Of a stretch of 64,000 nt of DNA, positions 2,059-63,831 are shown piece by piece. A program made the translations under genes and the position numbers. Within the stretch, counting starts at the first letter, position 1, and the number at the start of each line of letters is the position of its first letter. Origin of the DNA: Escherichia phage vB_EcoM_NBG2. A model generated the notes under the pieces. It saw only the letters and a program-made list of their open reading frames with translations, was not told the origin of the DNA and did no database searches. Where the stretch lies: sequence record NC_054925.1; one strand, written 5' to 3'.

Positions 2059-2234
2059 ATATCAAGAACCGTCATTGAAATGCAAAATAAAATTATTGAA
2101 ATAAACCCATCTGGTGTGCTAAAGAACCCAATCCAACATGCTCTAGTGAATAGATAAAATGCAAGAAAAAGTATCACATATCCAAGAAATATCATTATAT
2201 CAAACTCCGCATAAAGCTAAAGGGCCGAAGCCCT

Positions 2235-3437
2235 TTATTTTGTAATAATGTCAAACTGTTCTTTAAAACAGAAGCTTGAATCTTGGTGCTGATACAAAAA
2301 TTCATATGCTTTTTCTCGCTCACGGTCATAAAGAGCTCGGTCAGATGACAGTTCTTTAATACGTTCAAACGTTGATTCCATATCATTTTCATCAAACCAA
2401 ATGATACCGCTATCATGCGAGGTCAAAGGAGTATTATCAACACGGAATTTTAAATTTTCGCCAGTAGATTTCCAAAATACCGGAATTGTTCCACATGCAC
2501 CAAGCTCGAGATGAGTATATTCTAAAGAACGTTGTAGATATTTTTTGTCCAACTTACTCAGCTGATAACCAAATCCGGATTTACTCATGCGTTCAAGCAT
2601 TTCGCTATTTACATAACGATCAAGAATTTGCGTTGGCAAATTAGGAGCAATTTTAATTTGGTCTACTTGATGAAGACGATAATACTCGTATGGAATTCCT
2701 TTTTCTTTAATAGGAATGAACGCTGGAGAACGTTCCAGACCTTCCATAATAGTACTTAGTCCTGCAGGTTTAAGATGTTTTTCATGAAAATCAAACATCT
2801 GATAAAAACCTTTCCATGTAGTCGTACGACCAATCCAACGGTTAACATTCATGTTAATTTCAGAAACATCTTTCCAGTAGGTTGACCGAACCTTCGCAAT
2901 ATCCATAGGAGGCTGAAAGTTATATACTGTCGGTGCTTCTTCAATATCATCAAACAGAGAAACAGTTTCTGGATACCATTCTTTCATCAGAACTTTATTA
3001 AAATCACCATTATCAGAATGACTAAAAATAACATCAGCTCGACGAACAGTTTCTTCTAATCCCAAATTTCGACGCAAAGAAAGAGAAGAATGGTCATGTT
3101 GATAAACTACAACACGAACAGAAGGTTTAATGTTATCAATAATTTTTTTATAGTTATTAATAGTGTCTTCTTCAACCGAAGTAGCAGGAACTGAATTGAT
3201 AATTAGAATATCACAATCATTTACCAGCTTAAGTGTTTTATCATATTCTTTTGCCAATAAAACCGGAATTGAAAATGATTTATAATCATGCGCGCAATTA
3301 CGAGTAAATGATTTATCTTTAGCATAAACCAAAGTTACTTCATGACCATTCTTAATAAACCAATCACGTTGCTCAAGAGAAAATTTAGTTACACCACAAC
3401 CTTCAAGACCTCGAGCCATAAAAATACATACTTTCAT
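2235..3437 (-). CDS. a-gt: DNA alpha-glucosyltransferase
   Basis: 400 aa; near-identical over its length to T4 alpha-glucosyltransferase as recalled. Confidence 0.93.
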   Translation of the reverse strand: MKVCIFMARGLEGCGVTKFSLEQRDWFIKNGHEVTLVYAKDKSFTRNCAHDYKSFSIPVLLAKEYDKTLKLVNDCDILIINSVPATSVEEDTINNYKKIIDNIKPSVRVVVYQHDHSSLSLRRNLGLEETVRRADVIFSHSDNGDFNKVLMKEWYPETVSLFDDIEEAPTVYNFQPPMDIAKVRSTYWKDVSEINMNVNRWIGRTTTWKGFYQMFDFHEKHLKPAGLSTIMEGLERSPAFIPIKEKGIPYEYYRLHQVDQIKIAPNLPTQILDRYVNSEMLERMSKSGFGYQLSKLDKKYLQRSLEYTHLELGACGTIPVFWKSTGENLKFRVDNTPLTSHDSGIIWFDENDMESTFERIKELSSDRALYDREREKAYEFLYQHQDSSFCFKEQFDIITK

Positions 3438-57438: not shown

Positions 57439-60579
<3,141 letters not shown>

Positions 60580-60607: not shown

Positions 60608-62587
60608 ATGACTTTATTATCTCCGGGCATTGAGCTCAAAGAAACTACGGTTCAAAGCACCGTGGTTAATAACTCTACTGGTACAGCAGCTTTGGCCGGT
60701 AAATTCCAGTGGGGTCCTGCTTTTCAGATCAAACAGGTTACAAATGAAGTAGATTTAGTTAATACTTTTGGTCAACCTACAGCTGAAACTGCTGACTATT
60801 TTATGTCTGCAATGAATTTCTTACAATATGGAAATGATTTGCGAGTTGTGCGTGCTGTCGATAGAGATACCGCTAAAAACTCATCTCCGATTGCTGGTAA
60901 TATTGAATACACTATTTCTACCCCAGGTAGTAACTACGCGGTTGGAGATAAAATCACAGTTAAGTATGTTTCAGAAGACATTGAAACGGAAGGTAAAATT
61001 ACCGAAGTAGATGCTGATGGAAAAATTAAGAAAATTAATATTCCTACCGCAAAAATTATCGCTAAAGCGAAAGAAGTCGGTGAATATCCAGCATTAGGTT
61101 CTAACTGGACCGCGGAAATTTCTTCGTCTTCCTCTGGTTTAGCTGCAGTAATAACTCTTGGAAAAATTATTACTGATTCTGGTATTTTATTAGCTGAAAT
61201 TGAAAATGCCGAAGCTGCTATGACAGCGGTTGAATTTCAAACAAATCTCGAAAAATATGGAATTCCAGGAGTAGTAGCTCTTTATCCAGGCGAGTTGGGC
61301 GATAAAATCGAAATCGAAATCGTATCTAAAGCTGACTACGCAAAAGGAGCTTCTGCATTACTCCCAATTTATCCAGGTGGCGGAACACGCGCATCTACTG
61401 CCAAAGCAGTGTTTGGATATGGACCACAAACTGATTCGCAATACGCTATTATAGTTCGTCGTAATGATGCTATTGTTCAAAGCGTTGTTCTTTCAACAAA
61501 GCGTGGTGAAAAAGATATTTACGATAGTAACATCTACATTGATGACTTTTTCGCAAAAGGCGGTTCAGAATATATTTTCGCAACTGCACAAAACTGGCCA
61601 GAAGGATTCTCTGGAATTTTAACTCTGTCTGGTGGATTATCATCAAATGCTGAAGTAACAGCAGGAGATTTGATGGAAGCTTGGGACTTCTTTGCTGACC
61701 GTGAATCTGTTGACGTTCAGTTGTTTATTGCGGGTTCTTGTGCCGGTGAATCTTTAGAAACAGCATCTACTGTCCAAAAACACGTCGTTTCAATTGGGGA
61801 TGCTCGCCAGGATTGCTTAGTATTGTGCTCACCACCGCGCGAAACTGTAGTTGGAATTCCTGTAACTCGCGCTGTTGATAACTTAGTCAATTGGAGAACC
61901 GCAACAGGTTCATACACTGATAATAACTTTAATATCAGTTCAACCTACGCAGCAATTGATGGTAACTACAAATATCAGTATGACAAATATAATGATGTCA
62001 ATCGCTGGGTTCCATTAGCAGCTGATATTGCCGGTTTATGTGCAAGAACCGATAACGTTTCTCAGACTTGGATGTCTCCAGCTGGTTATAATCGCGGCCA
62101 GATTCTTAACGTTATTAAACTTGCTATTGAAACTCGCCAAGCTCAGCGCGACCGTTTATATCAAGAAGCTATCAACCCAGTAACTGGTACAGGTGGTGAT
62201 GGTTACGTATTATATGGTGATAAAACAGCTACTTCTGTTCCTTCTCCATTTGATCGTATTAACGTTCGTCGTCTGTTTAATATGTTGAAAACGAATATCG
62301 GACGTAGTTCAAAATATCGTTTGTTCGAATTAAACAACGCGTTTACTCGTTCATCATTCCGCACAGAAACTGCCCAATACTTACAGGGAATTAAAGCTCT
62401 CGGTGGAATTTATGAATATCGTGTAGTTTGCGATACAACAAATAACACTCCGTCAGTAATTGATAGAAATGAGTTTGTTGCAACATTCTACATCCAACCG
62501 GCTCGTAGTATAAATTATATCCAACTTAATTTCGTCGCAACTGCTACTGGTGCAGATTTTGATGAGTTAACTGGTCTTGCAGGTTAA
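60608..62587 (+). CDS. 18: tail sheath protein
   Basis: 659 aa; late promoter TATAAATA upstream. Confidence 0.95.
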   Translation: MTLLSPGIELKETTVQSTVVNNSTGTAALAGKFQWGPAFQIKQVTNEVDLVNTFGQPTAETADYFMSAMNFLQYGNDLRVVRAVDRDTAKNSSPIAGNIEYTISTPGSNYAVGDKITVKYVSEDIETEGKITEVDADGKIKKINIPTAKIIAKAKEVGEYPALGSNWTAEISSSSSGLAAVITLGKIITDSGILLAEIENAEAAMTAVEFQTNLEKYGIPGVVALYPGELGDKIEIEIVSKADYAKGASALLPIYPGGGTRASTAKAVFGYGPQTDSQYAIIVRRNDAIVQSVVLSTKRGEKDIYDSNIYIDDFFAKGGSEYIFATAQNWPEGFSGILTLSGGLSSNAEVTAGDLMEAWDFFADRESVDVQLFIAGSCAGESLETASTVQKHVVSIGDARQDCLVLCSPPRETVVGIPVTRAVDNLVNWRTATGSYTDNNFNISSTYAAIDGNYKYQYDKYNDVNRWVPLAADIAGLCARTDNVSQTWMSPAGYNRGQILNVIKLAIETRQAQRDRLYQEAINPVTGTGGDGYVLYGDKTATSVPSPFDRINVRRLFNMLKTNIGRSSKYRLFELNNAFTRSSFRTETAQYLQGIKALGGIYEYRVVCDTTNNTPSVIDRNEFVATFYIQPARSINYIQLNFVATATGADFDELTGLAG

Positions 62588-62593
62588 TTGATT

Positions 62594-63232
62594 ATGGGGC
62601 TTCGGCCCCTATTCTCGAGGAAACAAGTGATTATTTCTAAGTTTGTTACAATAAAACCAAGAAATCATTCAAAAATGTGGTCGACAATTCTGGGATATAA
62701 AGTATCATATCATGATACAGTATCTGTTCCAATAGAATTAATGCCAAAGAATAGTAATAAAATAGTTGACGCTAAGTGTGATTTGTGTGGTATTAAATTT
62801 AGTAGAAGCATTCAGCTTTTAAATAGAACACCCACGCATGCATGTAGAAAATGTAGCATTAAACAAGTTGCTATTAAAAATTCGGAAGTTCAATCTGGAA
62901 TAAGCAGACCATGGCAAAGAGGTGATAAACATCCTCGATGGACTGGTAAAAGAAAAGAGTTTGCATTATATGCTAGTAGAGTTCATTCTATAACTAAGTC
63001 AGCTAAAATAAGAAAAATCTGGTCAAAATGGCCGAATGCTGATAAAATAGGAGTGTGTGGTACAAAAGGTGCTTACCAACTCGATCATAAGGTATCTATC
63101 AAATATGGATTTGATAATTTAATTCCGCCGGAAATTATAGCAAGCGTAAAAAATTTAGAAATAATCACTTGGGAATCTAACCGAGAAAAGTCAAAAAGAA
63201 ATAGCGTAGATCTTTGGGATTTACTAGAATGA
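62594..63232 (+). CDS. putative HNH-family nuclease with N-terminal zinc ribbon (inserted between genes 18 and 19)
   Basis: CDLCG..(x15)..CRKC zinc ribbon; C-terminal LDHKVSIKYGFDNL...ITWESNREK resembles HNH core; ORF-track start is a TTG at 62588, first ATG at 62594 lies in a GGGGCttcgGCCCC hairpin, so start is uncertain (ATG at 62675 is an alternative). Confidence 0.55.
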   Translation: MGLRPLFSRKQVIISKFVTIKPRNHSKMWSTILGYKVSYHDTVSVPIELMPKNSNKIVDAKCDLCGIKFSRSIQLLNRTPTHACRKCSIKQVAIKNSEVQSGISRPWQRGDKHPRWTGKRKEFALYASRVHSITKSAKIRKIWSKWPNADKIGVCGTKGAYQLDHKVSIKYGFDNLIPPEIIASVKNLEIITWESNREKSKRNSVDLWDLLE

Positions 63233-63317
63233 TTCTAAAGGCCTGTTTCGGCAGGCCATATAAATACACTATATCCTTAATTCTTTAATTCTATATGCCC
63301 TAGGTTAAACATAGGGA

Positions 63318-63325
63318 TATAAATA
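63318..63325 (+). promoter_or_regulatory. late promoter (TATAAATA) for gene 19
   Basis: Exact TATAAATA 15 nt upstream of gene 19 start. Confidence 0.6.
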
Positions 63326-63339
63326 CTACAGAGGCTAAT

Positions 63340-63831
63340 ATGTTTGTAGATGATGTAACACGAGCGTTTGAATCTGGTGATTTTGCTCGACCTAACTTAT
63401 TCCAAGTAGAAATTTCTTATCTTGGACAAAATTTTACGTTTCAATGCAAAGCCACTGCTTTACCAGCTGGTATTGTAGAAAAAATTCCAGTCGGATTTAT
63501 GAACCGTAAAATTAACGTAGCAGGCGATCGTACATTCGATGACTGGACTATTACAGTAATGAATGATGAGGCACATGATGCACGCCAGAAGTTTGTTGAC
63601 TGGCAAAGCATTGCTGCTGGGCAAGGAAACGAAATTACTGGTGGAAAACCAGCAGAGTATAAAAAGAGTGCTATTGTACGCCAATATGCTCGTGACGCTA
63701 AAACTGTAACAAAAGAAGTCGAAATTAAAGGCCTGTGGCCTACTAACGTGGGTGAACTTCAGTTAGATTGGGATTCAAACAATGAAATCCAAACCTTTGA
63801 AGTAACTCTCGCTCTCGATTATTGGGAATAA
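63340..63831 (+). CDS. 19: tail tube protein
   Basis: 163 aa; MFVDDVTRAFESGDFARPNLFQVEISYLG as in T4 gp19; late promoter upstream. Confidence 0.95.
   Translation: MFVDDVTRAFESGDFARPNLFQVEISYLGQNFTFQCKATALPAGIVEKIPVGFMNRKINVAGDRTFDDWTITVMNDEAHDARQKFVDWQSIAAGQGNEITGGKPAEYKKSAIVRQYARDAKTVTKEVEIKGLWPTNVGELQLDWDSNNEIQTFEVTLALDYWE

Follow-up and report, generated by a model that had tools for sequence, protein, structure and literature searches.

The window analysed here is a stretch of 64,000 nucleotides (nt) from Escherichia phage vB_EcoM_NBG2 (NC_054925.1), in which an open reading frame (ORF) that we call ORF19.1 lies between tail sheath gene 18 and tail tube gene 19. Our preferred explanation, with a probability of about 0.65, is that ORF19.1 belongs to a divergent HNH-like (His-Me finger) family and encodes a free-standing homing endonuclease that is active or was so until recently; its probable target is the gene 18 3' end or the junction between genes 18 and 19. 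A first-pass annotation of the sequence had suggested that an HNH-like nuclease gene is optional here and shows the footprint typical of free-standing homing endonucleases, and this is the best-supported explanation, given an insertion polymorphism, an intact two-domain protein, structural matches to HNH enzymes and fusions of the nuclease-like domain to NUMOD and helix-turn-helix (HTH) modules. The footprint is further backed by relatives located between gene fragments and by the disagreement of the ORF and gp18 trees. Computational comparison showed that the site is polymorphic for an insertion with defined boundaries and that the protein is conserved; it also revealed the domain architecture and fold similarity of the protein, horizontal transfer and a hypervariable patch in gene 18. 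ORF19.1 is a new, uncharacterised gene of a well-known, ordinary T-even type of element.

The gene order in the window is gene 17 (58744-60576), gene 18 (60608-62587), a 214-codon ORF and gene 19 (63340-63831), and genes 17-19 overall show 94-96% nt identity to T4 (gene 18, 94.3%). The open-reading-frame list gives the ORF at 62588..63232 (+), with 214 amino acids (aa) from a TTG, as the first-pass annotation had it, and both peptide strings quoted there, LDHKVSIKYGFDNL and WESNREK, are found in it. Alignment of the 18-19 junction with those of T4-like genomes, as that annotation had proposed, defined the exact boundaries of an insert. The features of the locus are as follows.

60608..62587, plus strand: gene 18, tail sheath, likely the target gene of ORF19.1; a 659-aa ORF with a tail sheath annotation in T6, RB3 and T4, conserved and directly 5' of the insert.
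62588..63231, plus strand: optional insert of 644 nt, from the junction comparison with T4 and RB3.
62627..63232, plus strand: coding sequence of ORF19.1, a putative free-standing homing endonuclease; 201 aa plus stop.
63340..63831, plus strand: gene 19, tail tube, the 3' flank; a 163-aa ORF with 94.9% nt identity to T4 gene 19.

In T4, genes 18 and 19 are adjacent, as the first-pass annotation had stated, with a 116-nt spacer that holds no ORF, so the ORF is not at that position in T4. The insert begins immediately after the gene 18 stop, where T4 has 8 nt, TACGGTGC, instead: the T4 junction reads ...GGTTAA TACGGTGC ATTCTAAAGGCCTGTTTCGGCAGGCC..., and that of the window reads ...GGTTAA, then the 644 nt of 62588-63231, then ATTCTAAAGGCC.... 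In the junction alignment, T4 and the window are the same over a stretch that runs from ATTCTAAAGG to nt 80 of gene 19. The end at 63335 that the element had first been given lies too far downstream and takes in 103 nt of ancestral intergenic DNA.

Phage records with a homologue of ORF19.1 numbered 239, and the homologue was full length in 231. Within a junction set of ~500 T4-like coliphage records, the site was empty in 382, a T6-type allele (97-99% identical) was present in 68 (T6, PST, PP01, ECML-134 and others), and an RB3-type allele was present in ~50, as estimated from a spread sample; the gene is absent from 76% of close relatives. The same insertion point, between the gene 18 stop and a hairpin that is ancestral, is occupied in 40 Jiaodavirus records and unoccupied in ~100, and loci L019-L021 show a presence/absence polymorphism at a homologous insertion point. 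Directly after gene 18, the family was found in Tequatrovirus (T6-type and RB3-type), Gaprivervirus VR7 ('gp19.1'), Jiaodavirus, Dhakavirus, Karamvirus and Sinorhizobium phage phiM12.

The ORF19.1 protein matched phrog_5104 in PHROG (E 1.8e-81), whose function is listed as unknown. An AlphaFold model with 39 homologues (pLDDT 88.5) comprised two domains.

62627..62896, plus strand: N-terminal domain (residues ~1-90), presumed to be the DNA-recognition module; a beta-strand and a treble-clef-like zinc ribbon with C51-x2-C54 and C73-x2-C76.
62939..63229, plus strand: C-terminal nuclease-like domain (residues ~105-201), with D153-H154 at 63083-63088, N176-L177 at 63152-63157 and N185 at 63179-63181.

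In structure and in sequence, the N-terminal domain matched two DUF4379 proteins, mS66 and 6yxx_E2, and weak matches to DUF4379 (PF14311), the zinc finger of kinetoplastid mitoribosomal mS66, were obtained for 14 of 39 members. The window protein itself stayed below the gathering score for this family (14.2 bits vs the 24.5-bit cut-off). The resemblance is weak, and the shared CxxC...CxxC spacing and the mS66 structural matches are suggestive only as signs of DUF4379.

In the C-terminal domain, residues Y150, Q151, D153, H154, S157, G161, N176, L177, W182, N185, R186 and K188 were invariant in the family alignment. D153-H154 and N176-L177 remained invariant, and N185 was >90% conserved, across alignments of 39, 54 and 65 sequences; in the widest of these, D-H and N-L were the only invariant positions. 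In the predicted secondary structure, D-H ends one strand, N-L begins the next and N185 lies in the following helix. The HNH signature residues (a His after Asp ending strand 1, a structural Asn and a helix Asn) are all present at matching predicted positions, and on the model this layout is read as a beta-beta-alpha-metal (HNH-type) site of the H-N-N variant. The top structural matches of the domain were the HNH endonucleases Gme HNH (4h9d) and phage GVE2 HNH (5h0o), with modest scores, and many further beta-beta-alpha-metal nucleases appeared lower in the match lists. Relatives gave sub-threshold Pfam HNH / HNH_4 matches over the same stretch (E 0.02-0.2), and several of them carry the JGI label 'McrA'. 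Of the zinc ribbon and HNH-like core announced by the first-pass annotation, the two CxxC pairs, the D-H/N/N layout and the structural likeness to HNH enzymes therefore stood, but HNH was not detected at profile level: a Pfam check for HNH and zinc-ribbon domains gave nothing above cut-off for the window protein. From the modelling, ORF19.1 is probably HNH-like; we call this probable and not proven because the structural scores are modest and PDB profiles and Foldseek do not confirm it.

Classical HNH domains have CxxC pairs and a final His, both of which the C-terminal domain lacks. This would fit an inactive relic, a former homing endonuclease that persists only by linkage to the essential tail genes, as would the fixation of alleles at 97-99% identity within carrier lineages. 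Such a relic is highly improbable: full-length copies make up 231/239 records, and residues of catalytic type do not vary among thousands of divergent members of the family. Moreover, H-N-N variants of HNH, such as I-HmuI and T4 endonuclease VII, are active. The best structural matches (Gme HNH, GVE2 HNH and the HK97 gp74 class) and the location of the ORF ~2 kb downstream of the large terminase gene 17 also brought up a terminase-helper HNH of the HK97 gp74 type, which we take to be the functional class of 5h0o. This candidate was rejected, since the gene is dispensable: the T4 record and 76% of close relatives do without it.

When a profile of the C-terminal domain was searched among 1.84 billion proteins, with clusters at 50% identity, it matched at least 5,316 cluster representatives with E <= 1e-3, of which 3,269 reached E <= 1e-10. 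Among the matches listed, the domain lay nearly always at the C-terminal end. Its N-terminal partners included NUMOD3 (E 3e-15), NUMOD1, resolvase-type and other HTH, DUF4379 (E 5e-8) and DUF7487, and one relative, P0235, had a significant DUF4379 match (33.4 bits). NUMOD modules are characteristic DNA-binding modules of homing endonucleases. ORF19.1 is a modular protein, as seen in the two-domain model, in the swap of its N-terminal domain between alleles and in the fusion of its C-terminal domain elsewhere to NUMOD, HTH and DUF modules. Two metagenomic relatives had unusual settings. P0148 (268 aa) carries two tandem ORF19.1-type C-terminal domains behind a zinc-ribbon N-terminal domain and could be a built-in pseudo-dimer making double-strand cuts. 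P0043, which joins DUF7487 to the ORF19.1 domain, is located on ~190-kb metagenomic contigs (L027-L029); its large, phage-like contig has nearly no gene with a Pfam match and also encodes a homologue of ribosomal protein S21.

The phylogeny of the ORF conflicts with that of gp18, and the gene has spread horizontally. This conflict was seen in pairwise identities across seven lineages: T6 and VR7 share 72% in gp18 and 55% in the N-terminal domain (the closest to that of T6), RB3 and Jiaodavirus share 71% and 61%, respectively (again the closest, for RB3), and VR7 and Dhakavirus share 89% in gp18, with 21% in the N-terminal and 47% in the C-terminal domain. RB3-type and T6-type proteins, encoded next to gp18 proteins of 99% identity, are 37% identical in the N-terminal and 76% in the C-terminal domain. 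At the nt level, the RB3-type allele is a mosaic, with flanks that are 95-100% identical: its leader and first codons are at least 97% identical to the window, identity falls to ~45% over 62640-63006, and over the last 225 nt it is 87-100%, apart from a single 30-nt block at 57%. This block (63127-63156), in a catalytic domain that otherwise shows 93-100% identity between the two alleles, lies just before the invariant N-L, encodes PPEIIASVK in the T6-type and PAKIIGGIN in the RB3-type allele, and is either a fine-scale mosaic or a specificity-determining loop.

Relatives were also found between gene fragments. In Acinetobacter phage 133 (L009, NC_015250.1, 2070-4147), the member Acj133p227 lies between the annotated rnlA-A and rnlA-B; its C-terminal 75 residues belong to the nuclease family, and its N-terminal 190 residues have no Pfam match. 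In Campylobacter phage CP21 (L032, HE815464.1, 1-6189), four annotated fragments make up the gp18-like tail sheath gene, and the 388-aa member CP21_075 (locus 2083-3249) sits between such fragments, followed by three 'putative homing endonuclease' genes. No intron was found by Rfam at either locus.

A candidate target was apparent in gene 18 itself.

62501..62539, plus strand: hypervariable patch of gene 18 in which most changes are synonymous; it encodes ARSINYIQLNFVA and lies 48-86 nt upstream of the insert.

The patch differs from T4 at 14 positions, nearly all synonymous, with one codon that has Gln in place of Thr, and is the densest 40-nt window in the 4305 coding sites of genes 17-19; in a permutation control (2000 permutations), the maximum was 12 and the mean 7.2 differences. 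Outside the patch, gene 18 hardly differs from T4 over its last 375 nt, and the patch peptide ARSINYI(Q/T)LNFVA is conserved across genera. A comparable pattern was observed in a second genus, where the locus with the ORF (L020) shows ~15 clustered, mostly synonymous changes at the homologous position relative to the loci without it (L019, L021), and the 280 nt before the patch are nearly identical. Carrier-type codons (ATA-AAT-TAT) stand beside the T6, RB3, VR7, Jiaodavirus and L020 alleles, and ATY-AAC-TAC is found in empty sites (T4-like, L019, L021, L022, L023). The T6 patch haplotype was present in 68/68 records with the T6-type allele, and the T4 patch was present in ~300/382 empty sites; in Jiaodavirus the signal is weaker, with three fixed synonymous differences between carriers and non-carriers. 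Judged from these sequence patterns, the patch is a candidate recognition/cleavage or immunity site, which we offer as a lead and not as a result. Codon optimality was not kept as an argument for the patch, because AAT and TAT are common in gene 18 and only ATA is rare. A scan of IMG/VR with gp19 yielded 15 loci, too few for a formal test of association between patch and insert. On the IMG/VR contigs L012 and L018, a T6-like gene 18 patch occurs together with the exact T4-type empty junction TACGGTGC; these could be never-invaded resistant alleles or recombinants that precisely lost the ORF.

Several observations weigh against a homing endonuclease of the HNH type. The window protein had no HNH match in Pfam/NCBIfam even at E <= 1 to 10, PDB sequence profile searches (A2, A4) returned only zinc-finger, mS66 and spurious leucine-rich repeat matches, and Foldseek against PDB gave nothing significant. 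As for the patch, the empty-site loci L012, L018 and L015 have carrier-type codons, the Dhakavirus/HMGUkp2 subfamily adjoins T4-type codons, and the variation could reflect linkage or a promoter role. Neither cleavage or homing data nor a functional study of ORF19.1 was found in the literature searched. Finally, the same locus is held from coliphages to phiM12, which also fits an old resident accessory gene repeatedly lost, and no decayed copies were seen among the homologues, though the classical homing cycle predicts them.

The last two points lead to an alternative, in which ORF19.1 is a domesticated or accessory nuclease that is active and kept for the benefit of the phage, for instance because it keeps out or degrades the genomes of T-even competitors or promotes recombination, and no longer homes; its patchiness would stem from vertical descent, frequent loss and ordinary recombination. 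Occupation of one locus across very distant T4-like phages, phiM12 and Acinetobacter phages included, agrees with this, every copy examined was intact with conserved catalytic residues and free of signs of a pseudogene, and co-option of homing-type nucleases has been noted (PMC10448857, discussion; PMC13096335). We nonetheless consider it unlikely. The ORF/gp18 tree conflict is strong and two unrelated N-terminal domain classes occur in near-identical genomes, which requires repeated site-specific horizontal acquisition, as homing produces. In addition, relatives lie between the rnlA halves and between gp18 fragments, and the gene is dispensable in 76% of close relatives.

A bolder version of the homing endonuclease reading, which we put forward tentatively and regard as doubtful in its entirety, is that ORF19.1 may be the founding member of a very large His-Me-finger-type clade undetected by Pfam/NCBIfam, tied to the sheath gene in T4-like phages and re-targeted by swaps of its N-terminal domain in an arms race with synonymous recoding of the 39-nt patch. 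If this were true, it would represent natural modular re-targeting of a homing endonuclease, traceable in hundreds of sequenced phages.

The expression signals around the ORF comprise the following features.

62509..62516, plus strand: TATAAATT, a possible dedicated late promoter of the ORF, with a 7-of-8 match to TATAAATA.
62596..62609, plus strand: leader hairpin GGGGC-UUCG-GCCCC (GGGGCTTCGGCCCC / GGGGCUUCGGCCCC), part of the insert and overlapping the ATG at 62594.
62617..62629, plus strand: Shine-Dalgarno GAGG (62617-62620) and GTG start (62627-62629).
63240..63257, plus strand: hairpin downstream of gene 18, GGCCTGTTTCGGCAGGCC, ancestral, outside the insert and identical in T4.
63259..63325, plus strand: two T4-type late promoters for gene 19, TATAAATA at 63259 and 63318, from a pattern search; the stretch is 100% identical to T4.

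The start codon had been called ambiguous, with an ATG possibly throttled by the hairpin. This worry falls away, the real start being the GTG at 62627 with GAGG upstream. The sequence AAGTGATTAT is conserved in the leaders of T6, RB3, VR7 and Jiaodavirus, homologues in alignment A2 align from the residue of this GTG, mostly with M/V-I-I-S/T-K, and those predicted proteins of A2 that reach further upstream have V or M at the aligned start residue. T6 records annotate the start at the same GTG. The product is therefore 201 aa long, and the ATG at the hairpin edge is irrelevant.

Both stable hairpins that the first-pass annotation described as bracketing the ORF exist, but only the upstream one came with the insert, and the pair is not a cassette signature. 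The 3' hairpin (-12.8 kcal/mol, z -3.0) and both TATAAATA promoters are ancestral, because they are identical in T4, which is without the ORF; the gene 19 late promoter predicted downstream was thus found twice, at 63259 and 63318. The leader hairpin folds at -12.7 kcal/mol (z -1.5), unexceptional compared to shuffles, and a stable leader hairpin was predicted in 7/7 loci folded. It is unlike an intrinsic terminator, because no T-run follows, and it possibly attenuates read-through from gene 18.

The presence of hairpins on both sides of the ORF would be expected of a passive cassette, in which a zinc-ribbon DNA- or RNA-binding protein that is not a nuclease was moved by general or PeSL-type stem-loop recombination with the hairpins as crossover points; stem-loop cassettes mediate module shuffling in T4-type phages (PMC2839356), no HNH profile match was significant, and Pfam gives any support to one motif only, the N-terminal zinc ribbon. 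Against this, the hairpins show no sequence relationship to each other and that on the 3' side is ancestral, and conservation of the protein is highest in the C-terminal D-H...N...N domain, with its HNH structural matches and NUMOD partners. We therefore judge such a cassette very unlikely. In a scan of the region, sigma-70-like promoters were at chance level versus shuffles and no intrinsic-terminator-like site was detected. A PeSL cassette in the strict sense, defined by flanking repeats with a sigma-70-like promoter and a GGGG...CCCC stem-loop, was rejected, because no sigma-70-type promoter or terminator rose above chance; the hairpins are unrelated, and the 3' one is in T4. An Rfam scan of the region gave no match and no group I intron.

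The late promoter of gene 18, TATAAATA, lies at 60572, and the pattern search found no exact TATAAATA inside the insert. At 62509, the carrier-type patch creates TATAAATT where T4 has CATTAACT; that this serves as a dedicated late promoter for ORF19.1 is speculative. Late expression is supported by other lineages, since VR7 (within the hairpin loop), Dhakavirus and HMGUkp2 have a true TATAAATA just 5' of the ORF. Promoter positions thus suggest that ORF19.1 is probably transcribed late, with transcription either starting at the gene 18 promoter and reading through the leader hairpin or starting at TATAAATT in the patch.

Nuclease activity, target site, homing and mode of expression of ORF19.1 are what we infer, and a homing cycle could run as follows. 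The gene would be transcribed late, by a transcript that starts at the gene 18 promoter and reads through the leader hairpin or by one that starts at the near-consensus TATAAATT, and its translation would begin at GTG, which could keep expression low. The N-terminal zinc-ribbon domain would bind a specific DNA sequence, and the C-terminal D-H...N...N domain would nick or cut the gene 18 3' end or the 18/19 junction of a co-infecting phage without the gene. Recombinational repair from the carrier would then transfer a copy of the 644-nt insert, together with flanking markers, to the empty site just behind the gene 18 stop. The carrier itself may be protected by the synonymous patch (62501-62539) or by disruption of the junction.

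T4 MobA-E and I-HmuI-type enzymes resemble ORF19.1 in being free-standing, optional and located between conserved essential T-even genes; they belong to the HNH/His-Me finger superfamily, of which ORF19.1 is a probable member. I-HmuI has an Asp-His...Asn...Asn arrangement. T4 MobA-E are HNH homing endonucleases that nick their targets (PMC13096335). Mob-type proteins carry HNH_3 N-terminally and a zinc finger C-terminally (PMC10448857), whereas the order is reversed in ORF19.1, with the zinc ribbon N-terminal and the nuclease C-terminal; there is no sequence match between the two, and no HNH_3 (PF13392) match was obtained for the window protein or 39 relatives. Like the sites of mobE/hef and mobC/segH, that of ORF19.1 is one intergenic site that holds alternative alleles or is empty (here T6-type, RB3-type and empty). 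Alternative endonuclease genes at one site, mobE/hef and mobC/segH, were reportedly described in T4-related phages by Sandegren et al. in 2005. Unlike a replacement of the mobE/hef type, the ORF19.1 alleles differ only in the N-terminal domain and share a nearly identical leader and catalytic domain, a swap within the gene. Friedrich et al. are said to have described in 2007 mobE in nrdA of Aeromonas phage Aeh1, a gene split by a free-standing endonuclease gene. The relatives of ORF19.1 in rnlA (phage 133) and gp18 (CP21) recall this splitting, whereas the ORF in the window is intergenic and splits nothing.

T-even phages are a model system for free-standing homing endonucleases, and to our knowledge ORF19.1 is missing from their classic catalogue (Seg, Mob, I-Tev, Hef). 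A 2010 review of mobile elements in T4-type phages makes no mention of it, and it is present in T6 and in about a quarter of sequenced T4-like coliphages. If active, ORF19.1 would account for some of the localised marker exclusion and mosaicism near genes 18-19, would assign a function to PHROG 5104 and to thousands of metagenomic proteins that lack annotation, and would provide a new nuclease scaffold with naturally swappable DNA-binding domains.

Homologues are labelled 'head morphogenesis protein', 'type II restriction endonuclease' or 'hypothetical protein' across records, and a few recent records use 'homing endonuclease', 'HNH endonuclease' or 'type II restriction endonuclease'. The T6 record AP018814.1 bears 'putative head morphogenesis protein' at the ORF19.1 locus. 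Gene callers miss the GTG start, which matters for annotation. In phage WL-3 (L037, MT968995.1, 240-845), a 59-aa 'putative head morphogenesis protein' is annotated; a decayed copy was considered here and rejected, as translation gives an intact ORF of 201 aa, and the mis-annotation is due to the GTG start.

A second optional ORF was observed between genes 19 and 20, in Dhakavirus vB_EcoM_005 (L007, 4184-4765) and Karamvirus Entb_43 (L031, 3236-3817), so that the tail gene block seems to hold several insertion sites. This ORF is named 'HNH endonuclease' in one record, yet it had only a weak SegE GIY-YIG match in Pfam (E 0.005).

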